This document shows, piece after piece, positions 17,204 through 64,000 of a DNA stretch of 64,000 bases; position 1 is the stretch's first letter, and each line of letters begins with the position of its first letter. The position numbers were made by a program, and so were the translations under genes. The stretch comes from Scenedesmus sp. PABB004. Lineage: Eukaryota. The stretch spans positions 310,001 through 374,000 of the forward strand of contig JABVCE010000022.1 of assembly GCA_014905635.1 (NCBI GenBank). Direction: 5' to 3'. The notes beneath the pieces are model-generated. The model was not told the DNA's origin and did not search any database. It saw only the letters and a program-made list of their open reading frames with translations.

Positions 17204-19510
17204 ATGCTGGGACCGTCGAGAGCGGGCCTGGCGCGCTCCGGCCTGGCGCAGGTGCGGCGGCGCGGGCGCGCGGCTGCGGGGAGCGAGCGTAGTAGAACGG
17301 CGAAGCGAGCTGCTCCCCCCCCGGCTCGCAGGACCTGCCCCAGGCCGGTGGCGACTGCGAGAACGACTTTTTCATCTACGTCTTCAAGGTGCGCTGCCGC
17401 GCGGGGCGCCCGGCGCGCTGGGCGCGGCGGGGGCGGGCGATGAGGCGAGGCATCGGCGAGCAGCTCGCGCGCCAGGCAGCCCGAGGCGCCAGCGGCCCGT
17501 CCAGTGCCGCTCCAGCGCCCGGATCAAGCGCCAGACGGCGCCGCGGCAGCCAGGGACGCCGGGCGAGGGCGGGGCGGCCTTTATAGTCCCCCGGGCCTCG
17601 CCCGCCTCGCGCGCGCGTCCGGGCGGCGCCCGGCGGTGCGCCCGTGGCCTCGGGAGGGCGGGCGGGAGCGGCTGGAGGCAGCTTCGGCCAGCTGGTCTGT
17701 TGGAGGGTCCGGGCTGTTGTGGGCGCGACGCCGCCGGCCGGGCGTGTGGCCGCGCTCACCGCCGCCGCGCCGCCGCCCCCGTCCCGCTGCGCAGGTGCAG
17801 CCCTGCCCCAAGCGGTGAGCGCGCGCGCGCGCCGCAGCGGCCGCTCGCTGCGGGCGCAGGCGCGGGCTCGTGCGGGCGCCCGCCGGCGCAGCCCGCGGCG
17901 GCGCGCCCACACGCCGCCGCCGCCGCGCGCAGTGGCGCGCACGACTGGAGCAGCTGCCCCTACGCGCACCCCAAGGAGAAGGCGCGGCGGCGCGACCCGC
18001 GCGTCTACAAGTATGCCTCCACGCCCTGCCCCGAGAGCCTCAAGGTGCGGCGGCGCGGCGCGGCGGCAGCGGGCAGGCGGCGCGGCGGCGCGGCGGGCAG
18101 GCGGCGGTGGGGGCGCCGCTCGCATCGCGCGCGCGCGCGCACGCGCGAGCCGACGCGCGCCCCCGCCCCCGCCGCCCCGCGCGCGCGCAGGGCGTGAGCT
18201 GCGGCCGCGGCGTCGACTGCCACTACGCACACAGCGTGTACGAGTACTGGCTGCACCCCAGCCGCTTCCGCACGCAGGCGCGCGCCGCGCGCCCGCCGCG
18301 CCGCGCGGTGGCCGGCGCCGCGCGCGCCGCGCGCCCACGCCGCCGCGCCCACGCCGCGCCCACGCCCACGCCGCCCCGCCCCGTGCGCCGCGCCGCGCAG
18401 ATGTGCAAGAAGGGCAACCAGTGCAACCGCGCGCTCTGCTTCTTTGCGCACAGCGCGAGCGAGCTGCGCTTCCCCGAGACGGGCGACGACCTCGAGGCGG
18501 CGGCGGTCGACGCCGCGGCGGCGAGCGCGACCGCGGGCGCGCTGCCGCCCGCGGTGTGCGGCGCGCCGGCCGCGGTGTTCACGCCCGCGAGCATGCTCGT
18601 GCCGGGGCTGCCCGGCGGCTACGGCGCGCTGCCCAGCATCATGGGCCTTGGCCAGGTCTGCGGCGACGGCGGCGCGGCGGCCCACATGGCCGCGGCGCAG
18701 CTCGCGGCCATGGGCGGCGCCGGCTACGGCATGGTGCCGGTCGGTGCGCCGCCGCCCATGCTCGTGCGCCAGGACGGCTCGGGCGCGTACGCGCTCGGCG
18801 GGTCGGACGGCAGCTTTGCCGGCGTCGACCCCGCCAGCCTCAGCGACCCGCTGCCGCGCCTCGGCGGCGACGGCATGGGCGCGCCCAGCTCGGCCGCGTG
18901 GCTGCAGCTCGCGGCCGCCAGCCAGCTGCCGGTGAGCCAGGTCATGGGCGCGATCCAGCCCCCGCCGGCGCACGCGCAGTCGGCCCAGGCGCGCGGCCAC
19001 GCGCTCCACGCGCCCAACGCGCTCGCGCTCCAGCAGCAGGCGCGCGGCGCGGCGGCGGGGCTGCAGTGCGTGAACGCCGGCGCCGGCGCGGGCAGCCCCG
19101 GCGCCGGCGCCGACCACCTGGCCACGAGCCTCGCCGGCATGGCGCTGGTCGACGACAACAGCGCCAGCTCCTGCCTCACCTCCCTCTCCGGCGACCAGCA
19201 GTACCTCACCGTGTTGGCCGGCGGCGGCGGCGGCAGCAGCCTCGACCTGTCGTCGGCGCTCACGGGCGGCGGCGTGTCGTCGCCCGTCAAGGCCTCCGCC
19301 GGCATGGACCTGCTGCTCCTGCAGCAGCAGCTGCACGCGCAGCAGCAGGCGCAGCTCGCCAAGCTCGGCAGCGGCAGCATGGCCAGCACCGTCGCGAGCT
19401 GCGGCGCGGCCGCCGGCAGCCGCTCCTCGAGCGGCGCGCTCTCGTACCACCTCGTGCCGCCCATGCAGGCGCCGGCCGCCGCGGGCGGCTGGGGCGTGCG
19501 CATGGCGTGA
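17204..19510 (+). CDS. Plant-type RR-TZF tandem CCCH zinc-finger RNA-binding protein, 6 exons
   Basis: [39 protein letters not shown]...[58 protein letters not shown]. The last intron needs a GC donor at 18278. Confidence 0.92.
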
Positions 19511-24937: not shown

Positions 24938-27900
24938 ATGGCGCACGGCGTCGTGCCCGCCGGCAGCGCGCTGCGCGGCGCCAACGGCTACCTTGGCGGC
25001 CTGCTCGGCGGCGGGCGCCGCGGCGACGACGAGCCGGCCGGCGCGGCCGCAGAGGAGCGGCAGTCGCTGCTCGCGGCCGGCGGCGCGGCGGCGTTTGAGC
25101 TCGGCCCCCGCGCCCCCGACGCCGCCGGCGGCGCCTGCCCGGGCCGCGCGCCGCCGCCGCCGCCGCGCCTGCCCGTGAGCAGCAGCCCCGGCGGCGGCGG
25201 CCCGCGGCCGAGCGGCGCCGGCGCGCGCGGCCGCGCGCCGCCGCCCGCGCCGCCGCTGCGCACCGCGGGCGCCGGCGGCGCGCCGGGGCGGCCAAACCTT
25301 GAGAGTCTCGACTATGAGCTGGCTGAAAACACAGTGTATCGCACAGACACGGCGGCGCGCACGCACCTCGACCACATCACAAAGTCGGGAGCCAAGTGGA
25401 GCATGTGCTTCGCGCTCGGTGCGTGCGACGCTGCGCGGGCGCGGGCGGGCGGGGCCGCGGTCGCGGCGCCGCCGCCCATGACTAGCGCCGCCGCGGCGCG
25501 CAGGCGTGCTGACCGCGGTCGCCGCGTTTGCCGTGAACCTGGGGGTGGAGAACCTCGCGGGCTTCAAGGTGCGCCGCCGGCCAGGGGCTGGGCCGCGCGC
25601 AGGCCGGGACGCCATGGGCCGGGCCGCAGCGCGCCCGGCCGCGCCGCCCGCAGCCGCCCGCCGGCCGCCGGCCGCCGGCCGCCGCCCACGCCGCCCCCCG
25701 CCCGCGCGCCGCCGCCGCCCGTGCGCCGCCGCCGCCGCCGCGCCCAGTTCTGGGCCACGCTGACGCTTCTCGACCGGGGCCAGGCGCTCGCGAGCTACGC
25801 CGTCTACGCCGGGACCAACGTCGCGCTCGTCACCGCGTCCGTGTGGCTCACGACCGCGCTCGCGCCCGCTGCGGCGGGCAGCGGCATTGCAGAGGTCAAG
25901 GTGCGCCGCGAGGGTTTGGGGCGGTGGGCGTTGGGGCGGCGGGCGTCTGGGCGGCGGGCGTTGGGGCGGCGGGCGTCTGGGCGGCGGGCGCCGGGCGGTG
26001 CCGGCCCTGCTCCCCCGTGCGCGCTGGCCCCCGCGCTGCGGACCCACCGCCGCCCTCCCTCCCCCCCCCCCCCCCCACACACACGTCACGCACACGTCAC
26101 GCGCACTCGCCAGGCGTACCTCAATGGCATTGACGTCCCCGGCATCTTCCTGTGCCGCACGCTCGCGGTCAAGCTGCTCGGCAGCGTCGGCGCGGTCGCG
26201 GGCGGGCTCGCCGTCGGCAAGGAGGGGCCCTTTGTGCACGCCGGCGCCGCGATGGGCGCGCTGCTCAGCCAGGCGCGCGGCGCGCGGGCGGCGGCGCGCG
26301 GGTGGCGGCGCGCGGGTGGCGGCGTGCGGGCGGCGGCGCGCCGGCGGCCCAACGCGCGCCGGCGGCCCACGCGCCGCGCCGCGCCGCAGGGCGGCACCGG
26401 CGACGCGCACCTGCCCTGGTTCAAGCGCTTCTGGAATGACCGCGACCGCGCCGACATGGTCGCCTGCGGCACCGCGGCGGGTGCGGCACCGCGCCGCCGC
26501 AAACGCGCCGCCGCCGCCGCTGGCCCGCCGCCGCCGCGGACGACGCGCCCGGCGGCGCGCGCAGGCGTCGCGGCGGCGTTCCGCGCGCCCGTGGGCGGCG
26601 TGCTGTTTGCGCTGGAGGAGATGACCAGCTGGTGGCGCAACCAGCTGCTCTGGTACGCCTTTTTCACCACCGCCGTCGTCAGCGTCACGGGTGCGCGCCG
26701 CGCCGCGTTGGCGGGCCATGGGGGGAGCCTCCCCTAGCGCTGCGTCACGCCGCCGCCGCCGCCGGCCCACGCGCCGGGCCGCCGCGCGCCGCCGCCGCGC
26801 CGCCGCCGCCGCCGCCGCGCCGCGCCGGCAGTGCGCACGCTGATGCGGCTGTGCAGCGCCGAGAAGACGGGCGCATGCGGGTTCTTTGGCGCGGGCGGGT
26901 ACCTGCTGTATGAGATCACAGAGGGCCAGGCGCGGCGGCGGCGGCGGTGGCGGCGGCGGCAGCGGCGCGGGGCGTGCAGCAATGGGGGAGAGAGGGGGCC
27001 GTGCAGGGCGTGTGGCCGGGGCTGGCGCGGCGGGCGCGGGGCGGACGTGCGCCGCCGCCGACACCGCCGCCGCCGCCGCGCCGCGTGTGGGCGCGCAGTC
27101 CAACTTTGAGGCGCTGGAGCTGCTGCCGATGCTGCTGCTGGGCGTGATCGGCGGCCTGCTGGGCAGCGCGTTCAACCACCTCAACGCCGCGCTCAGGTGC
27201 GGGCGCAGCATGTGCCGCGCGCGCGGCGTGCGGGCCGCGGCGCATGCAGCGCGCTGGCGCCGCGCTGCGCCAGGGGATGCTGTGGGCCACGGGCCGGGCC
27301 TCGGGCCACCGCCGGCTGGGCCCGCCCGGCGGCCGCGGCGGCGGTCGGCCGCCCGCGGCCCCGCAGCCCGCCGGCCCCACGCGGCCCGCCGCGGCCCGCC
27401 GCTGCGCCGCGATGCGCCGCGCAGCGAGGTGCGCAAGGCGCGGCTCGCGCGCCACGGCGCGCGCGGGCGGCTGTGGGAGGGCGCCGCGGCGGCGCTGCTC
27501 GTCTCGACCGTCTCCTTCTTGCTGCCGATGCTCGTGGCCTGCCGGGTGCGCGCCCGCGGCGCGCCGGCCGCCGGCCGCCGTCGCCCGCCCTGCCCTCCCG
27601 CGCGCCGTGACGCCGCCCGCCGCCACCGCTGTGCGCGCACGCGCGCGCGCGCGCGCAGCCGTGCCCGCCGGACGTGGCCGAGGGCTGCCCGCGCAGCGAC
27701 AACAGCCACAGCGGCAACTTTGTCGGCTTTGGCTGCGCCGCGTCGAGCCAGTACAACGACCTGGCGACCATCTTCTTCAACACACAGGCACGCGCAGTGC
27801 GGGGAGGAAGGGGCGGCGCCGCGCGTGGGCGGGGGCGGACAGAGGTGCAGGCGGCGCCCGCCAGGGCGGTCCCGCACGCAGCCGCCCACAGCTCCCGCCG

Positions 27901-30196
27901 CGCCGCGCCGCGCCGCGCCGCGCCTCCTGCCGCGCCCGCCAGGACGACGCGATCCGCAACCTCTTCAGCAGCCGCACCAAGGCCGAGTACGGCGTCGGCG
28001 CGCTCACGACCTTCACGGTCACGTTCTTCGCCCTCGCCGTCGCCTGCTACGGCCTCGCCGTGCCCACGGGGCTCTTCGTGCCGTCCATCCTCTGCGGCGC
28101 CGCGTACGGGCGGCTCGTGGGCGTGTTCGTCGCCGACATGCGCCCCGGCGCGACCGGCGCGATCGACGAGGGCACGTACGCGCTGCTCGGCGCGGCGAGC
28201 TTCCTCGGCGGCGCGATGCGCATGACGGTCGCGACGTGCGTGATGCTGCTGGAGCTGACCAACAACCTGCCGCTGCTGCCGATGATGATGCTCGTCACGC
28301 TCGTGGCCAAGGCGCGCGGCGCGCGCGCGCGCGGGGGCCCGGGGAGGGCTCAAGGGCCAAGGGTTCAAGGGCTGAGGGCGCTCAGGGCTCAGGGCTTAAG
28401 GCTCAGCGAGGTTTCACGGGCTGCGGGGCTTCCCTTGTGGGGCTCGACCAGGGCTCGACGGGGGCTGGCGCCCTCCCTGCGCGCGCGCCCCGCCTGCCCA
28501 CGACCGCCCCGCGCCGCCCCGCCCCGTGCCGCACGCGCCGCGCCGCGCCGCGCCGCGCCGCGCCGCGCGCAGGCTGTCGGCGACGGCACGGGCGTGAAGC
28601 CGCTGTACGAGAGCCTCATCGACCTCAAGGGCCTCCCCTTCCTCGAGCGCAGCCCGCACGGCCTCATGCGTCACATCACCGCCGCCGAGGCGGCCGGCCA
28701 GCCCGCGGTCAGCTTTGCGCGCGTCGAGCGTGTCGGCACGCTGCTCGCCGTGCTGCGCGGCACGCCGCACAACGGCTTTGCCGTGCTCGGGTCGGCGCCC
28801 GACGGCGAGCCGCACATCCTTGGCATCGTGCTGCGCAGCCAGCTCGCGGTGCTGCTGCGCAGCCGGCGCTGCTTCCAGCCGACGCCCTTCGTGTCGGAGG
28901 CGCGCCGCCGCCGCCGCGCCGCGCCGCCGCGCCCGCGTCGCGCCCCGCGCGCTGCGCCCGCGCCGCGCCCCGCGCGTCTCGCCCACCATGTCCCCCGCTG
29001 CACGCCCCCCCCCCCCACACACACACGCACACACACGCGCGCCCAGGTCGCGGGGCGCGTCGCGTTCAGCTACCAGCAGAGCGACTTTGCGCGCCCCATC
29101 AGCGAGCCGCCGCCCGACGCGGCCGGCCTGAGCCTGAGCGAGCAGGAGCAGGGCATGTACATCGACCTCGGGCCCTACGCAAACCCCAGCTACTATGTGG
29201 TCCAGGCGCGCGCGGCAGCAGCGGCGGCGGCGGCGGCGGCGCGCCCGCCCGCGGCAGCGCACCGCCGCGCGCGCCGCGCGCGCTGCTGCGCGGCGGCCGC
29301 GCCGCGCCGCGCCGGGCCGCGCGCGCGCGCGGCGGGCGCGCGCAAGGCGCCGCCCAAGCGCGCGCCGCCCAAGCGCGCGCGCCGCCCAAGCGCGCGCGCC
29401 GCCGCGCGCGCGCGCGCCGCCCGCGCGCGCGCGCCGCCCGCGCGCGCACGCCGCTCACCCTCTCCCCCCCCCTTCCCCCTCTTGCAGGAGGACACGTCGC
29501 TGGCCAAGGCCTACACGCTCTTCCGCTCCCTCGGGCTGCGCCACCTCGCCGTCATCCCCCGCGCGTCGGCGGTCGTGGGCGTCATCACGCGGCACGACCT
29601 CCAGGCCAGCGCGCTCGAGGCGACCTGCCTGGAGCAGCTGACGCTCGGCGCGGGTGCGCGGCGCGGCGCGGGGCGGGGCGGGGCGGGGCGGGGCACAACG
29701 CGGCGCCCGCCCACCTCGCGCGCGCGCCCGCGCAGGCGTTGCGGGGCTGGCGAGCGCGCTGCGCGGCACGGTGCGCGACGCGGTCGACGCGTACCAGCAC
29801 CAGGCGACCACCAGCAGCAGCGGCGCGCCCAGCCCGCCGCCGCCGGCGGCGACGGCGCTGCCGCCGCCGCTCGCGTCGCTGGCGCCGGGCCGCGACCGGG
29901 GCGGCGGCGGCGGAGCCGGCGGCGCCGGCGCGCAACGGCCGGGCGGCAAGGCGCCCGCGCGGCTGGGCAGCGGGGAGGCGCGCGGCACGCCCATGGCGGC
30001 CGCGGCCTCGGCGCTGGAGATCGCGGCTGACGGGAGCAGCTGCGGCAGCGGCAGCGGCGCGCTCGCGTGGGGCGCGCCGCCGCGCGGCGGCAGCGGCCGC
30101 CCCGGCTTGGCCAGCCGGCGCAGCTCGGCCAGCGACGGGTGGGAGGACTTTGACGCGCCGGACGGCGGCGGCGCCGCGCGGCAGGCGGCGCGCTGA
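24938..30196 (+). CDS. CLC family anion/H+ exchanger with two CBS domains (CLC-d-like), 15 exons
   Basis: ESLDYE, GSGIAEVKAYLNG, GKEGPFVH, AFRAPVGGVLFALEE, YNDLATIFFNTQDDAIRNLFS, PTGLFVP, RMTV, HNGF and LGLRHL motifs all assemble in frame using 8 GT and 6 GC donors. Confidence 0.96.
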
Positions 30197-30252
30197 CGCG
30201 GCGGGCCAGGTCAACGCGCGCAGCGCGCGGTCAAGGCGCTCGCGGCGCTGCG

Positions 30253-30257
30253 TGTAA
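30253..30257 (+). terminator. TGTAA chlorophyte polyadenylation signal of the CLC gene
   Basis: TGTAA lies 57 nt after the stop codon; UGUAA is the established major poly(A) signal in chlorophytes. Confidence 0.6.
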
Positions 30258-30421
30258 CCGCTCGGCGCAGCCAGGACCCGGCGCGGGCGCACTGCTGCGA
30301 GCAGCACGACCCCTGAAAAATGCCGCGGCCGAGCCGAGCCTGAAGCGCGCTGCCTCTTGCCGCGCTGCTCTGCGCGGGTGGCGACGCGCCCAGAAGCGGC
30401 CTCCCCCTCGCCACACGCGCC

Positions 30422-32602
30422 ATGGAGGGCTCGCCGCCGGACCCGGACGGCTCGTGCGCGGAGCTGGGCGGCGCCGCTGCGCCGCCGCCGCCGCGGCGCG
30501 GCCCCGGCGGCAAGTCCAGCCACGTCGCGTCCATGCGGTCGCTCGGGCTCCTCCACGACCTGCAGGCGCGCGCCGACCCTGCGCCGCCGACCTGCAGGCG
30601 GCGGCCGCCCGCTGCTCCGCCGCCGCGCCGCTCACGCGCCGCGCCGCATGCGCGCCGGGCCGGACCCGCGCAGGAATACGTCACGAGCTTGCAGGCCACC
30701 GCCGATGAGCAGGCCAGCGAGCTGGCGCGGCTGCGGGGAGAGAAGCGAGAGGCAGAGAGGGCGCGAGCAGCGCAGCGCGGCGCGCGCTGCGGCTCCCGCG
30801 CGCGGCGGCTCTCGCGCCGCGCCGCGCGCTGGCGCCCCGCGCCGGCTGGCGCCCACGGCGCCCGGCTGCGCCGGCGCAGGTGCTGGCCAGGGAGCGGGGC
30901 GCGGCGCCGGTGGTGCAGCACTTTGCCGCGTCCGAGGTGGCCGAGCTGCCGCCGCGGCTGCGCGCGCTGTTTGAGGATAACAAGGTGCTCAAGGAGCAGG
31001 CGCGGCGGTACAAGGCGCGGGCCGCCGACGCGGAGCGCGGCGCCGCCGCGGCGGAGCAGCAGTGCCTCGCGCTGCAGGCGGCGGTGCGGGCGCTCAAGCT
31101 GCAGCTGGCGGAGGGCGCGAGCAGTGCCGAGGCGCTGGCGGCGGAGGCGGGGCTGCGGGCGCAGGCCGACGCGGCCACGCGCGCGCTGGAGGTGCGGCGC
31201 CGCTGGAGGGCGCGGCAGTTGCCAGCTGCCACCGCCAGCCCGACCAGGCGCAGCCGGGTGCGGGCGAGCTGCCCCAGCCGCCGCCGCCGCCGCCGCCGCA
31301 GAAGCTGCAGCACGCGCACGCGGTGCTCGGCGCAAAGCTGGAGACCGACGCGCGGAGCCACCGCCAGGCGCTGGCGGCGGGCGCGCGCGAGCGCGGCGCG
31401 CTGGAGCAGCAGGCGGCGGAGCTGGCCGTGCAGGTGGAGGCCAAGGACCGCGAGGCGCGCGCCGCCGTGCTGGCCGCGCGGCACGCGCAGCGCGCGCTGG
31501 CGGAGGCCCGCGGCGCCGCCGCGCGCGCGGCCGCCGGCGCGGACGCGCGCGTGGCTGCCGCGGTGGCCGAGGAGACCGCGCAGCACAGAGCGGTCGCCGA
31601 CGCGCGCGTGCACCTCATGCTCTGCGTTCTCACCGACCACGGCCCGGCGCCGGGGCGAGGCGGCGGCCGCGACGCCGGCGGCGAGTACGCGCCGCCGCGG
31701 CAGCAGCTGGCAGCCGCGGCGACGTGCGGCGGGGGCGACGACGGGCCGGGCGGCGGCCCCGGCGGCAGCTCGAGCTTGGGCGCCGGCACCGGCGGCGGCG
31801 GCGCGCGCGCTGGGCCGCCCATGAGCCGAGCGGACGCGGCGCTCGTGCTCCAGGCGGGCGCGCGCGGGTTCCTGGCACGGCGCGCGCTGCGGCGGCAGCG
31901 CGCGGCTGAGCAGCAGGCGGCGGTGCTCATCCAGGTGCGCGCGGCGGCGGCGCGCCCACGGCGGGGCGCGCAAGGGCCGGCTGCGGCACCGCCAGCGCGG
32001 CGCCGGGCGGCGGCGACCCGGCTCACGCGCACGCGGCCGGCCCGCCCCGCCCGTCCGCGCAGGCGGGCGCGCGGGGCATGCGCGCGCGGCGGCAGGTGCA
32101 GGCAATGCTCCAGGCTGCGCAGCTGCCCGTGGCGCTGGCGTGCGTGGGCGGCGGCGGCGCGAGCGGGCGCGCTTCGTGCGCGGCCAGCCTGCCCATGGAG
32201 CTGCCGGCGCTCGAGCCCGGAGCGCAGCCGCACGAGGCGGCTGCGCGGCGCGCAGCCAGCTGCAGCGGCGCCGCGGCGGCGTGCGGCCCGGCGCGCGGCG
32301 CGGCGAGCCCCGCCGGCGGCGGCAGCCGGCGGGGGGCGAGCAGCAGCGGCGAGGCGCCTGGGGCGGGGCGGGCGGCGCCGACGGCCAGGGTCCCGCGAGC
32401 GCCGCTGAAGCCGCCCCTGCCACGGCAGGCCGGCTCTGCCTCGCCGCGCGTCGGAGGCAGGCCCGGCGGCGGCAGGGCTGCCAGCGCAGCGGCGGGCGGC
32501 GCTGGCGGCGGCGGGGCGGCCGGCGCCTCCCAGCGCTCGCAGCAGCGGCGGCCAGCGAGACCGGCGCAGCAGGATCTGCCGCCTGGCGCGGGCGTCGCTT
32601 GA
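30422..32602 (+). CDS. Coiled-coil protein with two IQ calmodulin-binding motifs (possible lebercilin-like segment)
   Basis: ELPPRLRALFEDNKVLKEQARRYK coiled coil; AALVLQAGARGFLARR and AAVLIQ|AGARGMRARR fit IQxxxRGxxxR. The 5' exon boundaries are uncertain. Confidence 0.65.
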
Positions 32603-37663: not shown

Positions 37664-38570
37664 ATGGCGCTGCCCGAGCTGTTCCGGCAACGCGGCGCCC
37701 TCACCGCGCTGCGCCCCGCCGCCGTGGCGGCGGCCGCGGACCGGCACGCCGCCGCGCAGGAGGACGCCAAGCCGCAGCTGCTCCTGCAGCTGGAGCAGGG
37801 CGTCGCGCGCGCGGCGCGCGCGGCCGCCGGCCTGCAGGGCAGCTGCGCGTGGAGCGCGCGGCGGCTGGCGCTCGACGCCCACCGCCAGGCGCGCGCGCGC
37901 GGGCCTGCGAGGCCCCCGACGCGCGCCGCCGTTCCGACGCGCGCCGCCGCCATTCCTGGCAGGCGTTTGACGTGTTTGTGTCGTGCATGACCACCTACCG
38001 CCCGCTGCTGCTGCGCGTCCGCGCCGCGTACGCTGCGGCGCTGGACGACGCACTCGCGAGCGCGCACGACCGCGTCGCCCTGTCCGGTCAGCTGTCGCTC
38101 GCGCCCGTGCGGCACGTGAGCGCAGGCGCGCAGTGCGGGCGCGCGGCGCAGGTGCGCGGGCGCGCGGCGCGCGGTGGGTGCAGGCGACACCCACCAGGCG
38201 CCGGTGCCGCCGCCTGGCAGGCGGAGGCGGTCGCGACGGCGCGGGCCGACGCCGAGGCGGCGGCGGTGGCGATGGCGCAGGAGCTGCAGGACAAGCTGGG
38301 CGAGCTGGAGCGCGCCGCGGCCGAGGTGCGCACGCTGCGCCATGCGGCGCTCGCCGGCCGCGCCGGCGCGCGTCGCGGCGATCGTGCGGTGCGCCCGGGT
38401 GCGCGCAGGCGGAGCGGGAGTGCGCCGAGGCGGAGGAGGCGCTGCAGTGTCTGCAGAGGACGGTCCTGCAGGCGCGGCGGGAGGCGGACCAGCTCCAGCA
38501 GTCCAACGCGTGCGCCGGGCGGGAGCTGCTGGCGGCCTCGAGCTGGGCGCACCTCGCCGCGAGCGGCTGA
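37664..38570 (+). CDS. TSNAXIP1 N-terminal-domain coiled-coil protein, 4 exons
   Basis: KPQLLLQLEQGV...RLALDAHRQ|AFDVFVSCMTTYRPLLLRVRAAY resembles the TSNAXIP1/CLHC1 N-domain pattern KPxFLxQLE...YRExFxxFIxxFKTYKPLLxxIKxxY. The first intron has a GC donor (37889). Confidence 0.72.
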
Positions 38571-38859: not shown

Positions 38860-39692
38860 TCACACGTTCTGCTGCGTCTTGGCCCCCTCCTCCTGCAGGC
38901 GCGGCCGGCGAGGGGGCGGTGGTGGGCCCCGCGAAGCCGCGCCGCGCGCGTGGCTCCCACGCCGCCGGCGCCGCGCCGCCGGCGCCCCGCGCACCTGGCG
39001 GGAGTGGATGTTGGGGGTCCGCGCCTCCTCAGACACCATGAAGTCAGAGGACTTGAACACCTGCACGAGCCACGGCGCGGGCGGGCCGGCGGCGGGGCCC
39101 GTCAGCCGTCCGCCGCGCCAGGGACTACACCGTGCCGCCCGGCGCCCTGCCCAGCCAGCTGCGCCGCCGCCGAGCGCGCGGGGCCGGCCGCGCACGCGCC
39201 TGCTGGTCCTTGCCCGAGGTCTTCATGTCGCCCGCCGTGCCGCGCAGCTTCGCGCGCCGCGCCTCCTTGCTGCGGGCGTCGGTGGGGCGCCGGCGGGGGC
39301 GGCGGTGGCGGGGAAGGCGGCGGTGGCGGGGAAGGCGGCAGTGGCGGGGAGGGCGGCGGTGGCGGGGCCGCGGCGGCGCCAGCCGGGCGGCGCTGCTGCG
39401 GCGGCGCTGCTGCGCCGCCCCGCCCTCACGCGGCGAGCGCCTCCTTGAAGTCCTTGGCCTGCGCCGAGCCGCTGGAGAGCAGCACCAGGCCCGTGCCCAG
39501 CAGCAGCGCCCTGCAAGGGGGCGGGCGGAGAGCGGTGGTTTGCGGCAGCTCCGGCATGCGTGGCACACCGCGCTCGCCCCGCGCGTCCGAGGTCCCGCAC
39601 CTCCTGCCCTTCGGCTTTGGGACCTGACGCACTCTCCCCGCGACAACCGGGCGCGCCTGCGCGACGGCCGGACGCGTGGCGGCGACGAGCAT
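38860..39692 (-). CDS. Small uncharacterised thylakoid-lumen-type protein with a Tat-like signal, 5 exons
   Basis: MLVAATRPAV...GR|RALLLGTGLVLLSSGSAQA-KDFKEALA|AKEARRAKLR...DQQ|VFKSSDF...HSRQ|EEGAKTQQNV*: twin Arg, hydrophobic core and AxA cleavage site. Confidence 0.75.
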
Positions 39693-41260: not shown

Positions 41261-43673
41261 TCACAGCCAGCCCAGCTGGTGCCCGCCGCCCGCGCCGGCC
41301 TGCGCCTGCGCGCCGACGCCGGCCGGGCTGGTCAGGCTCTCCATGGTGTTGTTGTCGCAGCTGCTCAGCGCCTCCTCGCCGCCGCCGCCGCCGCCCAGGC
41401 CCCCCAGCGCCCCGGACGCCGCGTGCAGCTGCTGCAGCTGCAGCAGCTGCGCCACTTGGGCGCTGTCGAGCGCCCCCGGCGCGCTGGCCGGCAGGGGCTG
41501 CAGCGCCAGCAGATAGTCAGACGGCAGCTGCCCAGCACCAGCTGCCGTCGCGCTCGCGCCGCCGGTCAGCATCGGGGCGCTGCAGCCCAGCGGCCACGTC
41601 GCGTGGGTCGGGGGCGAGCCGGCCCCTGAATCGCCGCCGCCGCCGCCGCCGGGCAGCAGCACCCACTCGCCGCCGGGCGGCCCCGTGCCCGACAGGACCT
41701 GGAAGCTGCCGCTGCCGCCCGCGGCCGCGCCGGCCAGCGACAGCGTCGGCAGGCCGGACGAGGGGGCGGCCAGCGCCCAGCTGCCACTGCAGCTCATGGT
41801 GCTGCCGTTGCTGACGGCGTGCGCCAGCGGCTGCTGCGGCGAGCCCCGCGCCGACAGCGCGCCCTGCAGCTGCTGCAGCTGCTGCAGCTGCGCCAGCAGC
41901 GCCGCCTGGTCGTTCGACACCTGGCGCTGCAGCGGCGAGCCCACCGCATGCAGCTGTGCGGGCAGGGGCTCGCCCCCGGCGGCCGCCGCCCCTGCTGCCG
42001 CCGCGGCCGCGGCGCCTGCCTGGTTCTGCAGCGCCGCGCGCGCGCCAGGCGACGGGCCCAGCGCGGTCGTGAGCGCCCGCAGCTGCTGCTGCGCCTGCGC
42101 CGCCACCTGGCGGCTGCTGGCTGCGTCCGCCCGGCTGCTCTGGACCTCACGCACGAGCGACTCCAGCAGGGCCGACATGCCCGCCAGGCCGCTGCCGCGC
42201 GGCGCCGCGAGCCCCGCGCTCGCGTCGGCGTCCGCCAGCGGCGCGGCCGCCGGCGCCGCCGGCAGCTGCATCGCGGCGCCCCAGTCGGTGCTGGGCATGG
42301 CCGGCATGGCTGGCGCCTGCGCGTGCTGCTGGAACGTCGCCGCGGGCACCATCAACATGCTGCTGGTGGTGCTCTCGCACGCGCTCGAGCGCCGGCTGTC
42401 GCCCTCCTGCGCGCAGCCGGGCGCCGGCCACGCCGCCACCGTGCCGCCGGTGGCGCGCCAGCCCGGGCCGCTGGGTGAGCACGCGACCGCCGCCGCCGGG
42501 TGCTGCGGGAGCTGCAGCCACACCGTGCGCACGCCGCCGCCCGCCTGAGGGCTGGCGAGGTACGCCGGCTGGACGAACGCCGGCTGGCCCTCGCTCGGCA
42601 GGCCGCTGTCGCGCCGCAGCCGGCTGGGCCCCCCAAACGCGGCGGGCACGTCGCGGCTGGGCATGCGCAGCTGCTCCGCGCCGTGCGCGAAGAAGCACAC
42701 CTGCGCGCGCGGGCGGCGGCGTGGGCGGCGCAAGTCGGCGACGACCCCCCGGGAGAGGGGTGCCGAGCCAGGCGCCGAGCCTGGCGCCGCGCGCGGCCGC
42801 GCCAGGCCCGGCCGCACACCTCGCGGTGGCAGTCGTCGCCGTCCTTGCAGAGCATCGTCCGGAACTTCATGGGGTGCAGCCACGACTCAAACACCTGCGC
42901 GGCCGCGCGCCCCGCGCGTGAGGCCCGGCGTGCGCCGCGCCGCGCGGCGCCGCGCCGCGCCGCGCCGCGCACGTGGTGGCTGTGCGGGCAGGACGCCCCC
43001 AGCTCGCAGGCCTCGCCCTGCACGCGGCGGCGGCGGTCGCGGGGGCAGCGTGTGTGGGCGCCGCGCGCGAGCGCGGCTTCAGGGCGCAGACGGGCGCTGC
43101 GCGCTGCGCTGCGCGCGCCTTGACGATCGCCGGGCACATGTGGCAGTCGTAGCGGTGCGTCCGCGGGTCTCGGCGCTTGGCCTTCTCGCCCGGGTGCGCG
43201 AACGGGCACCTGGCGCGGCGGCGGCGGCGGCGCGGCGGCGGCGTGGGCCGCGCCCGGTAGCCGACGCGCGTAGCTGTCGCCGGCGCCGCCAGGCAGGCGG
43301 CGGTCGCTGCGCGGCAGCGCGCCCCGCCCGCGTGCTCACGTCGTCCACTCGTGGCTATAGCGCTGCGGGCGGGCGGTGCGGGCGCGCGGCGGCGCCGGGG
43401 GTGGGGCCGAGTCGGATGCCACCGGAAACCGGCGCGCAGGGGCGCGCTGCGGGGTCGGCGGCCCACCTTGGAGCACGGGAGGATCTTGTGCGCGTACATG
43501 ATGAACTCGGCCGACTGATACACCGCCTGGGGCACGCGCTGATGATGAGGCCCGCCGGTGCCATCGTCGCGGCTGCGCGTGCGCGCGGGGCGCGCCTCAG
43601 CCGCCGCGGGAGCACGCGAAGACGGCACCCACGCGCCGCACCGCGCGCGCTCGCACCTGCGCCCGGGCTCCAT
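41261..43673 (-). CDS. Second RR-TZF tandem CCCH zinc-finger protein, 7 exons
   Basis: SAEFIMYAHKILPCSK|RYSHEWT|TCPFAHPGEKAKRRDPR...CPAIVK|GEACELGASCPHSHH|VFESWLHPMKFRTMLCKDGDDCHRE|VCFFAHGAEQLR. GC donor at 43118. Confidence 0.92.
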
Positions 43674-44142: not shown

Positions 44143-45739
44143 AGCCACGCCGCCTTGGCGGCCGGCTGCAGCGGCCACAGGTGGTGGCCCGCCACCTCGC
44201 TGGCGGTCACGGGGCCGTGCGTGCAGCCTCCCCACGCCTGCGCGACGTGCGGGCGCGCCTGGCGGGGCCCGCGCGGCCGGGCTGCACGCGCCGGCCCGCG
44301 GGCCGCGGCGCCGCGGCCCGCAGGCAGTCGCACCTCCACCATCGCGCGGGTCACGCGCCGGTCGGCGGCGCCCCAGAACAGCCGCAGCGGGAAGGTGAAG
44401 GCGCGGGGCGGGTCGGGGCTGCGCGGCGGCCGCGTGAAGGCGCGTCACGGCGGCCGTGGCGGGCCAGCGCGCCCGCGCAGCTCACCGACCGCCGGCCGGC
44501 CGGCCCTGGCGCCTCGCGGCGGCCACGTGAGCGGCGCACCTCGGCGCGTACTCGTCAAAGAGCCGGAAGTCGGCCCGCAGCTGCGCGCCGTACACGGCCC
44601 ACTGCGCCGGCGCAAACACCGCGTCCCTGACGTCCCAGCCGCGGCACTCCTCCTGCGCGCGCGCCGCGCCGCGCCGCGCGCGTGGGTGCGCCGGCGGCGC
44701 CGCGCGGCGCGGGCGCGCGCGCGCGCGCGCGCGCCTGGCCAGCGTGCGGCGCCGCCGGCACCTTGAACTGAGCCTCGTCCAGCGCCGCTTGGCGGCGCCA
44801 GGGCCGCGCCGCCTCGGGGATGCCGGGCCAGGGCATGGCCGACAGGCACGCGACGGCGGGCTCGGGGAAGCCTGCGCGGTGGCGGCCCGGTGGGGGCCTC
44901 CGCGGCGCGCACGGCGCGCGGCTTGGCGCGCGGCCGCCCAGCTTGTTTTGGCCGCGGCCGCCTGCGCAGGCTGCCGCCGCCGCGCGGCGCGCCTGCGCGC
45001 GTGCCGGCTGCGCACCCTCGGCGCGCAGGAGCAGCAGCAGCTCCCAGGCGGCCCAGGCGCCCATCGAGTGCCCGCAGACCGCCCAGGCGCCCGCCGCCGC
45101 CAGCGCCGGCGCGACGAGCGGCAGCAGCTCCCGCGCGACCGCCTGCAGCGTCGGCAGCGGCGCCTCGCGCGCGCGCAGGGCGCGCCCGGGCAGCTGCGGC
45201 GCGAGCAGCTGCCAGCGCCGCGCACGCGCGAGCTCCAGCAGGGGGCTGGGCGCGCGCCGCGCGCCGGTGCCCTCCGACGTCCACATGTCCTGGCGCCGCC
45301 GGCGGCGGCGGCGGGGCAGCGGGCGGGGCGTGGGCTCGCTCTGGCGCAGGACCCCTGCAGCCGCTCCCCCTGCAGCTGCCGCCGCCCACCTCGGCGCAGC
45401 CGGCGCAGTGGAACGCAATCACGACCGCCGCGGGGCGCGCGCATGCGGTGCGTGGCAGCCCCGGAAACGCGGCCGCGGCCGCGCGCACGTCGGGCGCGGG
45501 CCAGCGCGCGGCGAGCGCGGCGAGGTCTGACGGCGCGTAGTGCTGCCGCAGCTGCTCCTCGGTCCTGCGGTGCGTGTGCGTGGGACGCGCGCCGGTGCGC
45601 GCCGCCCGCGCGCCGCCCGCGCGCCGCACCAGCGCTCGAGCTCCTCCTCGCTCGGCTCCGGCGGCAGCGGCCTGCCGGCCTCCTCGGCCTCCTCGCGCAG
45701 CACCTCCAGCAGGTTGATCTTGCGCAGCAGGGCAGCCAT
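44103..45739 (-). CDS. Type II thioesterase (GrsT/TEII-like alpha/beta hydrolase), multi-exon
   Basis: FHCAG, QLPGRALRAREAP, GHSMG nucleophile elbow, LRADF, FWGAADRRV and GHHLWPL catalytic-His region, all in TEII order. Confidence 0.88.
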
Positions 45740-46271: not shown

Positions 46272-46273
46272 GC

Positions 46274-56749: not shown

Positions 56750-57725
56750 TCACGGCTCTGCCGCGTCGCCGCCCGACTCGGCGCCGCCGGCGGGCAGGCT
56801 GGTGAGGGTGTAGTGCAGCTGGTATCGGATGACCCGCCCCGCGGCGTGCTGCGCCTGCGCACCACGCGCGCGGGTGCGGCGGGGCCCGGCGTCACAGGTG
56901 GGTGGCCTGGCTCCGCGCCAGGCGCTGCGCGGCGCCCGGCGCTGCGCCGCGCGCCTTGTAGCACGGCGGCACGGCGCGCGCGTCGTCGTCGGGCCCTGCG
57001 CCGGCGCGGGCGTCGGCGAGGCGGTCGAACTCGTCCAGGTCAGAGTCGGCGCCGCCCGACGAGGCCGCGGCCGCGCTGGACGCCGCGCCCACGCTGCCCG
57101 CGCGCCCGCGGCCGCGCGGCGCCGGCGCAGCCGCGGCGCCCAGCGCGGCGGCGGTGACGGGCACCGCGCCGGCGCCGCCGCGCGGCGCGGCGTCGCGCGC
57201 GGCGGCGCTCTCCAGCGTGAGCGCCGACAGGTGGCTGCCCAGGCTGCTGGCCAGCCTGGCGGCGGCCTGCGGGCGCGATGGCGGCAAAGGCGGTGAGGGG
57301 GCCCCCGACGCGCGGGGCCCCGCCGCGCCCGCCGCTCAGCCCCCGCGTTCGCGCGCGCGGGGGACTGAGAGCCATGCCAGCCCACCCGGCCGCCCTTCGC
57401 CGCGCGCGGGTCGGCATAGAGCAGCGCGTCGTGCAGCGCCGCCCACGCGCGCGGCAGGCGCATCGGCCCGAGGCGGCGCAGGTCGAGCTCCAGCGCGGGC
57501 GGCGGCGCGTGCGCGGCGCCATCGTAGACCACCCCCTCCAGGCCCTGCGCCGCGGCGCCAGACGATACATCGTCAATTGCTATATAGCAATTGAAGGCGC
57601 CGGCGCCGGCGCCGGCGGCGGCTGGGCGCGCGCGCGGCGCGCCGCGCCACGCCGCCCACCAGCTTGGGGCAGCTCACGGCGACGGCCGTCGCCCAGCTGC
57701 CGGCGAGCGTGCCCAGCAGCTGCGG

Positions 57726-57760
<35 letters not shown>

Positions 57761-59018
57761 GCTGCTCGATGCTGCCCCTGACGCTGCGGTCCTTGGCGAA
57801 ACGCAGCGCGAAGAAGAGGCCGCTCGCGGGGCAGGAGATTGCCAGCTCGCCTACGAGCGCGCGCGTGCGTGCGGTGGCAGCTGCAGCCTGCGCGCGCGCG
57901 GGGGGGGGGGGGGGCGGCGGCGACCGCCGGGGCGCCGCCGCACCCTTGAACGCCACGGGGCAGCTCGCGCTGGTGGGCGCGAGCAGGTGCAGCGCGGGCC
58001 AGGCGATCGTGTAGTCCTCGCCCCAGCCGAGCAGCTGCAGCCGCCCACCGGCGCCGGGCTGGTCGCCCAGCTCCAGCTTCACGCTGAGCTCGCGCCCCAG
58101 CCGCTTGGCCTTGGCCACCGCGTGCGGCAGCAGCCCCAGGCTCAGCAGCGCAAGCGGCACGCCCTGCGCGCGGCAGCGGGCGGCGGCGGCTGCTGGACGC
58201 TGCGGCGGCGGCGCGGCCGCGGCTGGGTGTCGCGGCGGCGGCCACGCCGCCGCGGCTGGGCGCTGAGCGGGCGGGCAGCCCGGTGCGGCGCGGCCGGCAG
58301 CGGCGGCGGCTCGTGCCTGCACGCCCACAAAGGTCTTGGGCCCCTCTGCCGCATCAAACGTCGCAATCTCCTGCAGCCACGCCGCAAAGCGCTGCCCGCT
58401 CCCCGCCGCGGCGCCCGGCCCCGGCGGCGCCGGCGCGGGCGGCCCGCCCTCCGCGCGCGCGGCCGGCGCGGCCGGCGCGGCGGCGCCCTCTCCTGGCGCG
58501 CCGGCGCGGGGGGTGCGGTGCGTGCTCGAGGCGGGGTAGCCGCAACGGCCGGCCGCGAGGCGCGCGCGGCGCAGCCGCCGCGCCGCGCGGTCGCGCGGCT
58601 CATCCGCACCCAGGAGGCGGTGGGAGAGGTAGTGGTGCCCCAGCACCATGAGCGGAACGTCCTGCGGGTCCTCGCTGCGGCGCAGCAGGTCTGTCAGGAA
58701 CGCGACACACAGCTGCGCGACCGCGAGCAGCCGCTCCAGCGGCTCCGGCGCCTGCGCCACCGCGAGCAGCAGCTGCCCGTGCCGCATGTGCTTGTCGTCC
58801 TGCGCCCGCGAGCGGCGTCGGCGGCAGTGGCGCGCGGCGTCGGCCGCTGCGCAGCCTCGCGTGGGCCGCTGCTGGCGCCGCCCCGTCGCCGCTCCGGTGC
58901 AGCCTTGCAGCGCAGCGCCGTGGCCCCTGGCGAGCCCCTGCACCCGCTGCGAGGGCGGCGGGCGCTTGCTGGCGCCCTGGACGCCGCCCAGGACACCGCG
59001 CAGCGGCGGCGCAGCCAT
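56750..59018 (-). CDS. Divergent oxysterol-binding-protein (ORP/OSBP)-like protein, ~7 exons
   Basis: QLLLAVAQAPEPLERLLAVAQLCV, GEDYTIAWP, GELAISCPASG, VRGSI, LAGSW and RAWAALHDAL appear in ORD-domain order, but the EQVSHHPP signature is absent. Confidence 0.65.
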
Positions 59019-59697: not shown

Positions 59698-59790
59698 CTA
59701 GCTGCCGCCCGAGACCACCACGCTGCCCTGCTGCACGCCTCGCAAGCGGCAGTGGTGCCTGTTCGCCTGCTTGGTCGCTGCCACCTGCGC

Positions 59791-59833
<43 letters not shown>

Positions 59834-61305: not shown

Positions 61306-61453
61306 GCGCCCGGGCGTGAGCGCGCGCCGCGAGGGAGTCGAGGCGAGTCGCAGTTGCCAGCGGTGAACCGCCCTCCCGCAGCCACGCCCCGGCCGCGCCC
61401 GCCCGCGCCTGCCGGCCTCGCCCGACCACCCGCGCCGCGACCGCGCCGCGCGC

Positions 61454-64000
61454 TCACTGCCAGGGCGTCTGGCAGTGCGCGCAGTTAGACTTGCCGCTCG
61501 TGGTGAACCACTTGTAGAGGCAGGCGGGGTGGAACGGCACGCCGCACTGGCGGCAGCTGAGGCGCGGCAGCTGGCCGTTGGCGGCAGAGATGACGCTGTA
61601 GCCTGGGGGCGGGCAAGCGCAGTGGGCGGGCGCAGCGGGTGAGAGAGGTGAGCGCTGCTAGGAGCAGCAAGAGGCGAAGAGGCGCGGTGGGGCGCGGTGG
61701 GGCGCGGCGGCGGCGCGGCGCGCACAGATGAGGCAGGGCTCGACGCCGGCAAACTCCTGCTCCAGGTTGGCGCGCCACATCGCGATCGCCTGCAGCAGGC
61801 CGCTGTTCTGGTTGCGCAGAAACACGGCGATGGAGAGCAGCCACTTGCGCAGGCGGCCGTCCTTGATGCCAACCTGCACGCGCGCGCGCCGAGCGCGGGC
61901 TGGGCGCGGCTGGCGGCCGCGCGCGGCTCCGCCGGCCGGCAGCCGCCGCGCCCTCCCTCGCCCAGGCCCGCGCAGGCGGCCGGGCGCGCGGGCAAGCGCG
62001 CGCAAGCGCGCACGCGCCTTGTTGCGGCACTCGACCTCGGCGGCGCGCAGCGGCGCGGCGGCGGGCAGCTTGACCTGCAGCTCGAGGCTCGCGCCGTCCT
62101 CAATCTCGAGCACCGCCGTGACCTCGCGCGCGGCGGGGCTCGCGCGCACGCGGAACGCGCAGCTGCCGCCGACCTCGCCGCCCGCGCCCGCGGCGTCGCG
62201 CGCGATCGCCGCAAACTCGGCCGCGAGGATGGCCGGCGACTCGTGCCGCGACGTGTAGGCCTCCACCGCCGCCGCGGCGCCGCGGTCGCGCAGGTCACTG
62301 AACCAGAGGCGCGCGCTCGCGGGCAGGCTGGACAGCACGCCGCGGTACGTCGCCGCGGCGGCGAGCCGCCAGCAGCCGGGGCTGGCCGGCAGGCCGAGCG
62401 CGCGCAGCGCGGGCGCCAGCGCCCAGGCGCCGCCGGCGCCGCCGCCGCCGCCGAGCGCCTGCAGCCGCGCGCACAGCTGCGCCTGCGCGGCGGGCGGCAG
62501 CGCGCCCGCGCCCCCGCCCGCGCCGGCGGCGGCGTCGGGCGCGCCCGGCTCCTGCCCGTGCTCCTCCGCGCCGGCGCCGGCGCCGCCGCGCGGCGCGCGC
62601 CGGCCGCGCGGGGCCAGGCCGATGAGCCCGACCACGCGGTCCAGCAGCTCCGGCACCAGCTCCGGCACGTCGCGCAGCGCCTGCGTGAGCCGCGCGCGCG
62701 CGTCCGCCTGGCGCGGGCCGAGGCCCGCGAGGTGCGCGAGAAGCAGCGCCCAGTGCAGCAGGTGCGCCTGCCACGGCCGCGGGCTGGTCAGGCCGGCCGC
62801 CATCTCGGGGCGCAGCCCCGCGCGGACGAGGAAGGTCGCCGGGTCGTCACCGACACCAAACTCCAGCGCCTCCGCGTCGCCCTCGTCGCCGCCGGCGTCG
62901 GCGGCGTGCGTGACGCGCGCCAGGCTCGCCGGGTGCAGCGCGAGCCGCCACGCGAGCGCCTGGAGCGGCTCGCAGGGGCCGTGGTGGTGCACCGCGCCCG
63001 CGCCGCCGCCCGCGTGCGCCATGGGCGCCGCCAGCAGCGCGAGGCAGCAGCTCACGGCGTCGACGCCCAGCAGCTCCAGCCGGTCGTCCGCCGCGGCGAG
63101 CGCCTTGCCGGCCGCCTCGTCGTCGGCGCCCGACAGGCAGCGCGCGAGCAGCGCCCACGTCGCGCCCTCGCCCGCCAGCGCGGCCAGCAGCGCGCCCGCC
63201 GCGTCGGGCCCGCAGCACGACGCGAGCGCGGCGGCGCCGCCGAGCGCGAGCAGCAGCGCGAGCAGCTCGCGCCGCGCCGACGCGAGCGCGAGGTCGAGCT
63301 GCGGCGCGCGGCCGGCCGCCTGGATGGGGCCCTGCAGCCCCAGCACCGCCGCCAGCAGCTGCAGGCCCAGCGACAGCGGGCGCAGGCCGAGCCCCGCGGC
63401 CGCGCCGCGCGCGGCGTCCGCGAGCGGCCCCGCGACGGCGGGCTGGCGCGCGAGCAGGCCCTTGCGCGCGAGGCGGCGCAGCAGCTCGATCGCCATCGCC
63501 GGCGTCATCACCGGCGCGTCGCCGCCGCCCGCCGCGGCAGCGGCGCCGCCGAGCGAGCCCGCCGCGGCGCACGCCGCGCCCGCGAGCCCGCCGGCGGCGC
63601 GCTCGACGTCGCGGCGCGCGGTGCTGAGCCGCGCCTGCGTGTCGCGCAGCACGACGTGCCACTCCGGCGCCGACATGTCCTGCCAGCAGTAGGCGACGCA
63701 GCAGAGCTGCAGCCGGCACAGCAGCAGCGGCATGGCGCCGCCGCCGTCGCCGCCGCCCGCGGCGGCGCCGCCCCCGCTCGGGCCGGCGCCGCAGGCGTGG
63801 CGCAGCAGCGCGGTGAGTCCCTGCCGCTCCACGCCCGTGCTCGCGCCCGCCGCCAGCGCGGGCGCGGGCGCGGCGCGGCCGTGGTGGCCCGCGTGCGCGC
63901 CCGCGTGCGTGGGCTCCTGATGCACCGGGAAGCACGCGACCGCCAGCTGCAGCAGGTCCTGCAGCTCCGCCGCCGCCGCCGGCTCGCTGCAGGCCGCGCC
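61454..64000 (-). CDS. LTN1: E3 ubiquitin ligase listerin, 3' portion (5' end outside the window)
   Basis: LPASARLWF, RWD-like domain, LRKWLLS...WRANLEQEFAGVEPCLICYSVI...LPRLSCRQCGVPFHPACLYKWFTTSGKSNCAHCQTPW RING. One GC donor at 62017. Confidence 0.95.

Follow-up and report, generated by a model that had tools for sequence, protein, structure and literature searches.

The window, that is, the whole 64,000-nt stretch analysed here, comes from Scenedesmus sp. PABB004 (contig JABVCE010000022.1, forward strand, positions 310,001–374,000) and contains a CLC-d gene, two tandem-zinc-finger genes (TZF-1 and TZF-2), an IQ/coiled-coil gene, a TSNAXIP1-like gene, a gene for a small protein (putative 'lumen protein'), a putative 'ORP-like' gene and LTN1, all of them with introns that appear to begin with GC. 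A gene model predicted 16 AG|GC donors among 97 introns of the window, 14 of them with a margin of at least 5, in agreement with the hand count of 14 among about 85 introns given in a preliminary description of this DNA. The eight sites named there outside the CLC-d gene all read [CAG/AAG]|GC(G/A)CG on the proposed strand, and all are donors of predicted introns.

The introns of CLC-d were placed by spliced alignment to homologs with any donor dinucleotide allowed, and 6 of the 14 introns in the conserved part were found to start at xAG|GCRCG, with the unconserved tail, where a 15th intron had been called, left out. All six lie on the forward strand in phase 0: 26273..26389 (CAG|GCGCGC, GT in the metagenome relative L122), 26930..27098 (CAG|GCGCGG), 27788..27942 (CAG|GCACGC, GT in L122, L124 and L134), 28312..28572 (AAG|GCGCGC, GT in L124 and L129), 28900..29046 (GAG|GCGCGC) and 29206..29487 (CAG|GCGCGC, GT in L124). 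The same procedure applied to PRP8, which lies on another contig, placed 11 of 31 introns at GC, every one of them after exonic AG. Judged from their sequence, these introns would belong to the U2-type GC-AG class, with GC at +1/+2, AG at the 3' end and a conserved frame that is restored upon removal, and their donor consensus GCGCG is unlike the U12 motif quoted in PMC3033335.

The two zinc-finger genes provide a comparison between paralogs. TZF-1, identified by Pfam, has a predicted GC intron at 18278..18400 (forward strand, CAG|GCGCGC, margin 11.2), splicing of which yields an intact CCCH finger without gaps, and a GT intron at 18045..18190 (forward strand, AAG|GTGCGG), whose position corresponds to the predicted GC intron of TZF-2 at 43018..43118 (reverse strand, AAG|GCGCGC, margin 9.2); both follow the Lys of C-P-x-x-x-K. 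In LTN1, the Pfam profile PF23009 is collinear across the predicted intron 61874..62017 (reverse strand, AAG|GCGCGT, margin 7.0), the match reaching profile position 44 before the intron and continuing from 46 after it. The donors at 30566, 37889, 39199, 43118, 56954 and 58316 are supported by gene model and reading frame, that at 43118 also by the paralog. They comprise the predicted introns 30566..30673 of the IQ/coiled-coil gene (forward strand, CAG|GCGCGC, margin 10.6, gene model only), 37889..37962 of the TSNAXIP1-like gene (forward strand, CAG|GCGCGC, margin 8.6), retention of which would cause a frameshift in a gene with a weak match to PF15739 (E 0.029), 39061..39199 of the small-protein gene (reverse strand, CAG|GCGCGT, margin 5.9), retention of which would lead to a stop, 58164..58316 of the putative 'ORP-like' gene (reverse strand, CAG|GCACGA, margin 10.5), whose next exon gave no Pfam match, and the low-confidence intron 56855..56954 (reverse strand, AAG|GCGCGG, margin 3.6). 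A further call that the preliminary description had not named, 44653..44734 on the reverse strand, is doubtful and may be false, as an in-frame AAG|GTGCCG stands 27 nt upstream.

Such in-frame GT alternatives, which occur at several of the named sites and at 44734 and 62017 among the GC calls, raise the suspicion of prediction artefacts, or of a repair at the RNA level by intron retention, by use of a nearby GT or by C-to-U editing at +2, and the public model P0001 indeed reads through one of the six CLC-d introns (26273). The same model, however, splices the other five, including 26930, at the GC site, and alignments restricted to GT donors are worse: PRP8 then needs 195 gap steps and 2 frameshifts, where the free alignment needs 34 gap steps and no frameshift, and CLC needs 71 gap steps instead of 27. 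Decoy donors offered to the gene model do not fit, GA, GG, CC and AC having been chosen after AG 2, 6, 6 and 0 times with its exon-side term removed. An artefact or such a repair is very improbable, and homology and the gene model together confirm that frequent GC donors are real and not a local peculiarity.

The pooled count covered 784 kb, about 2% of the genome, and was obtained by the gene model with decoy donors, leaving out the C21 block, in which a repeat gene has more than 60 repeated GT introns. It gave 180 predicted GC donors among 1089 introns, or 16.5% (95% interval 14.4–18.9%). The class was seen in 19 of 20 blocks, G+C being 76–80% in the 15 blocks measured, and a held-out 200 kb gave 40 GC donors in 268 predicted introns. 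With PRP8 on another contig, the class thus extends far beyond the window, and the modelled fraction is several-fold above 1–2%, as in GC-AG-rich algal genomes. The preliminary description had set its proposal against a local fluke or mis-annotation, with a fraction near 1–2% or no dependence on AG; the gene model gives 16.5% and a strict dependence.

The dependence on exonic AG, suspected from the window, is indeed sharp. In the pooled gene model 180 of 537 AG-preceded donors are GC, compared with 5 of 552 among all other donors and 0 of 362 among GYGCG donors without AG. Among donors placed by homology in CLC and PRP8, AG precedes 17/17 GC donors versus 16/27 GT donors, and when the exon-side term was removed from the gene model, the GC class ended in AG 164 times and in AC 3 times. 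The proposal that all GC introns are in phase 0 proved wrong, since the phases 0/1/2 number 146/7/27 for AG|GC (n = 180), as compared with 259/28/70 for AG|GT, and 6 of the 11 PRP8 GC donors are in phase 2. The observation that common GT donors read GTGCG rather than GTRAG holds in the larger sample (n = 904), with 608 GTGCG, 163 GTGAG and 3 GTAAG.

The rest of the GC donor is strong on the exon side, has G at +5 (144/144) and excludes G at +4, with no gain of the U1-complementary +3A or +4A. Relative to the intron background, +3A is 0.98-fold and +4A 0.65-fold in GC donors, as against a 6.3-fold enrichment of +4A in GT donors without AG. Compensation by +3A was considered because of an apparently significant excess (21/144 versus 4/365), which vanished against the intron background. 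Dividing out the in-intron C:T ratio in the same context explains this excess as well as most of that of +6C, and leaves a smooth gradient with ln-ratios of 2.6 for CAG, 3.0 for AAG and 3.9 for GAG. GC introns start poor in T, an effect that the model itself may have produced in part. The predicted U1 duplex is weakest for GC donors, at −4.1 versus −7.2 and −5.6 kcal/mol. Exons show no avoidance of the motif as a cryptic site, the Ala codon in xAG-GCG-CGN being GCG in 116 of 132 cases, like controls, so the motif alone must be insufficient.

The preliminary description had further proposed variant U1 or U6 snRNA. Two identical copies of U1 as well as U4, U5 and U6 were found, and the splice-site-reading parts of U1, U5 (loop 1) and U6 (guide) are canonical, which leaves that proposal unsupported. 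A variant U1 was sought by family and DNA searches, which returned the two canonical copies only, the family search having scored 41 of 245 candidates, and may have passed over a very divergent copy. Loss of a METTL16-like or SNRNP27K gene was rejected, as both families match, and so was a change in PRP8, in which 2 of 227 invariant columns differ from few and distant references. U1C differs from its human counterpart at 3 of the first 17 residues.

A different origin of the donors would be recent insertion, in which introners pick up the GC at an AG|GC target site, which is the case in Micromonas pusilla and Aureococcus. The phase 0 bias, the CAG|G...CAG|G ends and the existence of introner families with up to 50% GC donors (PMC9860276) fit such an origin. 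Yet AG|GT donors show a similar phase distribution, and at four of the six GC positions of CLC other algae have GT introns, although this is one gene, and most of the relatives reached by the metagenome scan are distant (27 of 80 loci aligned, four sharing CLC GC positions). No intron families emerged from a filtered BLAST of 821 introns from about 1.5% of the genome, with matches for 6 of 144 GC introns (75–79% identical) and 31 of 677 GT introns, a sample in which small families could be missed; an unfiltered BLAST was discarded because low complexity produced matches for the majority of introns, whether GT or GC. Duplication-like identity between intron ends and flanks, beyond AG, showed no excess over random pairing (p 0.26 and 0.33). 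Recent introners are a very improbable source, although among the majority of GC introns, which lie outside these comparisons, some may be old decayed insertions. The tested ones look like old introns changed from T to C, as the preliminary description had suggested.

As to the cause, the GC donor share rises with the GC content of the intron itself, from 19/106 to 45/105 (p 0.001), and weakly with that of the fourfold sites of the gene (p 0.013). It is unrelated to the GC content of the gene's remaining introns (p 0.89), and GC donors neither cluster by gene (p 0.66) nor associate with first or last intron position or gene length, so that regional GC pressure finds no support in them. The earlier idea that GC pressure converts GT wherever exonic AG pairs stands in its link to base composition and fails in its 'wherever', as about one-third of AG donors are GC. 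In the same AG context, C makes up about one-third at donor +2 versus 92% inside introns, an equilibrium reading of which assumes that intron interiors are neutral.

The best explanation, to which we give a probability of roughly 0.6, is GC pressure acting through T-to-C changes at +2 that are tolerated behind exonic AG, with canonical spliceosomal RNAs. In this model the introns would be ordinary U2-type introns, read by a spliceosome whose U1, U5 and U6 guides are canonical, and strong genome-wide G+C pressure (mutation bias or GC-biased gene conversion) would repeatedly produce T-to-C changes at +2 in old GT introns. Such changes would be tolerated only in donors held on the exon side by −2A and −1G, best with −3C, that also keep +3R and +5G and avoid +4G. 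Selection against C would be weak in these donors, with about one-third of the sites flipped, and would remove C from all others. Since the intron side pairs no better with U1, site choice would have to lean on exon-side contacts and context, namely short introns of about 88% GC that end in a near-invariant CAG. Frequency, AG gate, old positions, canonical snRNAs and the lack of +3/+4 compensation are shown by homology and modelling, while GC pressure as the driver, the pairing logic and the selection strengths are what we infer from them. Published data count against GC pressure, since in PMC3033335 GC content correlates only weakly with the GC-AG fraction, M. RCC299 having 64% GC and a fraction of 2.7%.

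The preliminary description also considered altered U1C or Luc7 recognition. In a rival view of this kind, a changed U1-associated protein relaxes the check at +2, leaving room that GC pressure comes to occupy. The single LUC7 identified no longer has the conserved loop of ZnF2, which reads STDN[DE][QA]R in all but one of 38 close homologs of the GKQ[YF] type and AAPAEGGR here, as read directly from the DNA, where it goes with a 27-nt microexon, whereas in the ~198 residues preceding it no more than 3 further conserved columns differ and the background of divergence is low (8/279 conserved columns in CLC, 2/227 in PRP8). The loop aligns with yeast Asp212, Asp214, Arg215 and Arg216, whose Ala mutants bypass Prp28, which was read as a weakened interface between U1 and the 5' splice site (PMC4986886). 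A lone LUC7 without this polar/acidic loop flanking the U1:5' splice-site duplex could thus shift recognition to the exon side, and exon-side donors are those favoured by LUC7L3-type proteins (PMC11842720). No second LUC7 paralog was found in searches that scored few candidates, matched exon by exon; the GC donors are those with the weakest predicted duplex, and U1 snRNP proteins have been proposed as the cause in other algae (PMC3033335). Against this stand a correlation in one genome, a homolog (P0306) that diverges too, a possible assembly error in LUC7 and an assignment to LUC7L3 by motif and database labels (five 'Luc7-like protein 3', one 'Luc7-like 2'); a weaker duplex could equally worsen weak donors, and the new residues A, P and G have GC-rich codons and may be a by-product. 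A PDB search with the loop exon gave no useful match. A changed protein as the cause is rather doubtful, and its more explicit form, a U1 snRNP retuned through the rebuilt loop of the lone LUC7 to ignore +2 after exonic AG and so to use a routine second donor class, is slightly more so; if true, it would account naturally, and by a single protein, for the GC-AG 'enigma' of GC-rich algae. The ZnF2 divergence is a candidate lead on the cause, which may count against unchanged machinery under GC pressure, the machinery perhaps having changed too.

Comparable GC-AG fractions are known from Aureococcus anophagefferens (39.6%), Micromonas pusilla (22.2%) and Chlorella NC64A (7.7%) (PMC3033335) and from Emiliania huxleyi (56–61%, PMC4028052). 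PABB004 shares with these algae a high genomic GC, a GC-AG fraction far above 1–2%, a canonical U1 5' end, an intact AG acceptor and GC content as the proposed cause. It differs in being chlorophycean, a group in which C. reinhardtii and V. carteri have 2.0% and 2.4% GC-AG, and in that its introns, as far as tested, sit at old positions without forming families, introners being present in M. pusilla and Aureococcus (PMC9860276). The AG gate and the LUC7 change are features of PABB004, neither being reported in the passages on GC-AG-rich algae in PMC3033335 and PMC4028052. The claim that the phenomenon is undescribed for this group thus stands as far as no report on Sphaeropleales GC donors was found in the literature searched, where the tables behind PMC6310983, PMC10639083 and PMC11347168 may hold a number, and falls for GC-AG introns with GC content as their cause, which have been published with two green algae included (PMC3033335, PMC4028052).

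Animals and plants have a minor GC-AG class of U2-type introns (~1%; PMC3167603, PMC6310983), in which, as here, the U1 mismatch from T-to-C at +2 is tolerated only in an otherwise strong site, in PABB004 one with −2A −1G, +5G and no +4G. Here the class is about 14-fold commoner than the plant mean of 1.2%, and its intron side matches the U1 complement no better. The left-handed 5' splice sites promoted by LUC7L3-type proteins are likewise recognized on the exon-side consensus (PMC11842720), with −1G and a +5 that is not G, in contrast to PABB004, in which 144 of 144 GC donors keep +5G and the change is tolerated at +2. A chlorophycean case is thereby added to the short list of genomes with routine GC donors, in which, unlike the introner cases, old GT introns appear to change one by one under a sharp rule. 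Its donors can be counted as a natural experiment on the tolerance at +2 that exon-side contacts provide, with the tractable relative Chlamydomonas (2%) adjoining; the strict AG rule and the changed splicing protein make the cause testable, with LUC7 as a protein candidate for the question that PMC3033335 left unanswered. Of the 201 predicted intron-bearing genes, 80 have one or more GC donors, so that GT-only annotation of such genomes would break many genes.

The eight GC donors named in the preliminary description (18278, 30566, 37889, 39199, 43118, 56954, 58316 and 62017), all in the window (C16:310001-374000, 79% GC) of a genome of 39.97 Mb in 80 contigs, were each found by direct reading of the sequence to consist of CAG or AAG followed by GC(G/A)CG. 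For the test, a spliced profile aligner was written in which the AG acceptor is obligatory and the donor can be left unconstrained, and the CLC gene was aligned with 17 algal CLC-d homologs, leaving out the public protein model P0001, the best match of a CLC exon (100% identical, labelled Scenedesmus sp., with Tetradesmus obliquus among the next at 85%). These matches suggest that the alga is a chlorophycean of Scenedesmaceae type. With free donors the conserved part contained 14 introns, 8 GT and 6 of the form xAG/GCRCG (the slash marking the junction), and the score was 2352 with GT and GC allowed (27 gap steps), 2206 with GT only (71 gap steps) and 2266 with GT, GA and GG. P0001 itself uses the GC site in five of the six CLC GC introns and reads through the remaining one; this 1572-aa model (window 24938-32600) joins CLC to the next IQ/coiled-coil gene, retaining the 26273 GC intron as coding and omitting the exon downstream of the 30566 GC donor.

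At the LTN1 donor 62017 a Pfam domain is collinear over the junction, splicing at 18278 yields an uninterrupted CCCH finger in the zinc-finger gene TZF-1, and the TZF-1 GT intron at 18045 occupies the same position as the GC donor 43118 of its paralog TZF-2. The other named sites are predicted by the gene model, weakly at 56954. The GC donor class as a whole is very probably real.

PRP8, located on another contig (C19, 498-510 kb), was aligned against 22 representatives, giving 31 introns by spliced profile alignment: 19 GT, 11 AG/GC and one unresolved. The free-donor run retained 11/11 GC and 17 GT sites, the three others shifting where the alignment was poor, and GT-only alignment required 195 gap steps and 2 frameshifts, against 34 and 0 with GC allowed. 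Six of the 11 GC donors are in phase 2, so phase 0, earlier ascribed to all such introns, is no rule. For CLC and PRP8 pooled, AG precedes 17/17 GC donors versus 16/27 GT donors.

A census was taken with a two-strand gene HMM whose self-training started from CLC, PRP8 and a single long ORF and covered the window and a further 14 blocks of 40 kb each; GA and GG served as decoy donors, and the non-GT classes received no input from the exon side. The first pass placed AG before 127 GC donors and non-AG before 81 (decoys, 9 and 111), and 40 of 268 confident GT/GC introns in 200 kb held out of training were predicted as AG/GC. In a neutral rerun AG preceded GC 164 times and AC 3 times, excluding a bias to cut after A-rich codons, while AG-preceded decoys numbered 2 (GA), 6 (GG), 6 (CC) and 0 (AC). 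Over 784 kb, or 2% of the genome (margin at least 5, block C21 dropped), AG/GC comprised 180 of 1089 predicted introns (16.5%, interval 14.4-18.9%) at a noise level of 12 decoy calls, rather than the 1-2% that would mark a local fluke or misannotation; the unfiltered count was 239/1410. The suspected dependence on exonic AG held in these predictions, with GC in 180/537 AG-preceded donors and 5/552 others. Block C1:2000001-2040000, with few confident introns, had GC donors in 0/21 confident GT/GC introns. C21 carries at about 70.8-87 kb a predicted gene of >60 near-identical exon-intron repeats, whose introns are all phase 2 with (A, G or C)AG/GTGAG donors.

The GC donors read CAG, AAG or GAG, then GC, G or A at +3, mostly C at +4 and G at +5; those with +4G numbered 0 versus 153 GCG (AG/GT, 52 versus 246), so +4G is excluded, and among non-AG donors of GYGCG type GC occurred in 0/362. 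Relative to intron interiors, GC donors showed no enrichment of +3A (0.98-fold) or +4A (0.65-fold), whereas +4A was enriched 6.3-fold in GT donors without AG; a weak exon side is thus rescued by +4A, and +2C is not. The predicted U1 duplex is weakest for GC donors. The GCGCG:GTGCG ratio is 11.5:1 in intron interiors versus 153:246 at AG donors, with log ratios between them of 2.6 (CAG), 3.0 (AAG) and 3.9 (GAG), suggesting weak and graded selection against +2C if interiors are neutral and at equilibrium. No exonic avoidance of the motif was found; it is common inside exons, so context must choose the true sites. Acceptors in the sample read GCGCAG or CCGCAG (-3C 99%, -4G 75-83%), and interiors contain <7% T with no evident T-rich tract.

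These donors would be best explained by GC pressure that a mostly standard spliceosome filters through its recognition of the exon side, at a probability of roughly 60%. The proposed variant U1 or U6 was not borne out, as the two identical U1 copies have a canonical 5' end and the U6 ACAGAGA box and U5 loop 1 are canonical. The U1 copies lie on C46 in inverted orientation, 5.5 kb apart, and U5 and U4 genes lie on one strand of that contig, 0.8 kb apart. METTL16-like and SNRNP27K genes are both present, PRP8 is changed in 2/227 invariant columns, and U1C differs from human at 3/17 N-terminal residues, including Thr11 to Ala. The U1C gene occurs at the end of C1 and on C61, identical across the 400 nt compared, through either duplication or assembly redundancy.

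The main rival, a retuned LUC7, is rather unlikely, though compatible with GC pressure. Three different searches detected a single LUC7 locus, whose ZnF2 loop reads AAPAEGGR, against STDN[DE][QA]R in 37/38 close homologs, and aligns to yeast residues 210-216, a region where Ala substitutions bypass Prp28 according to PMC4986886. The loop may be a candidate cause, as a lead only, but its divergence is known from one genome and the replacement residues have GC-rich codons. A 27-nt microexon within ZnF2 (L009:2581-2610, C4) encodes nine residues present in the Tetradesmus homolog P0277 and missing from P0278, which suggests conserved alternative splicing.

Intron positions were compared in the 27 of 80 metagenome CLC loci that were aligned. 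Four have introns at CLC GC positions (profile 289, 511, 633, 795), all GT, and in the closest, L124 (76% identity, 58% GC), three of these positions bear GT introns; no intron matching position 394 or 742 occurred among the 27. Neither GC intron families in the intron sample, duplication signals at GC intron ends nor clustering by gene was found, and GC introns are slightly longer and richer in GC than AG/GT introns. The simplest history is that old introns changed from T to C at +2. L122, an unrelated CLC locus from an alga (48% GC), carries CAG/GCAAGT donors, of the classical U1-matched type, at 467 and 686 of the profile, in contrast to those described here.

GC-AG introns average 1.2% in plants (PMC6310983) and reach 2.0% in C. 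reinhardtii and 2.4% in V. carteri. Values of 39.6% for Aureococcus, 22.2% for M. pusilla and 7.7% for Chlorella NC64A appear in PMC3033335, which puts forward high GC content as the cause, describes U1 as canonical and suggests U1 snRNP proteins or base modifications, and 56-61% is given for Emiliania in PMC4028052. The kind of phenomenon is therefore already known, green algae included. No report of GC donors was found for Sphaeropleales, and introns are unmentioned in a comparative paper on that group (PMC12571836). The present analysis adds the strict AG gate, the lack of intron-side compensation, a candidate in LUC7 and the probable origin of GC introns by conversion of older ones.

Upstream of TZF-1, the window contains a 370-nt inverted repeat (15730-16099 and 16716-17085, 99% complementary, 616-nt spacing), which could be a MITE-like element or a hairpin-RNA source. 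A 298-nt direct repeat (43854-44151 and 45983-46280, 96% identical) covers the 3' ends of two adjacent minus-strand genes and the spacer beyond. Tandem paralogs at 12-2121 and 3613-5471 (78% DNA identity across 83 nt) have a common Cys/His domain, which we take to resemble an SBP box.
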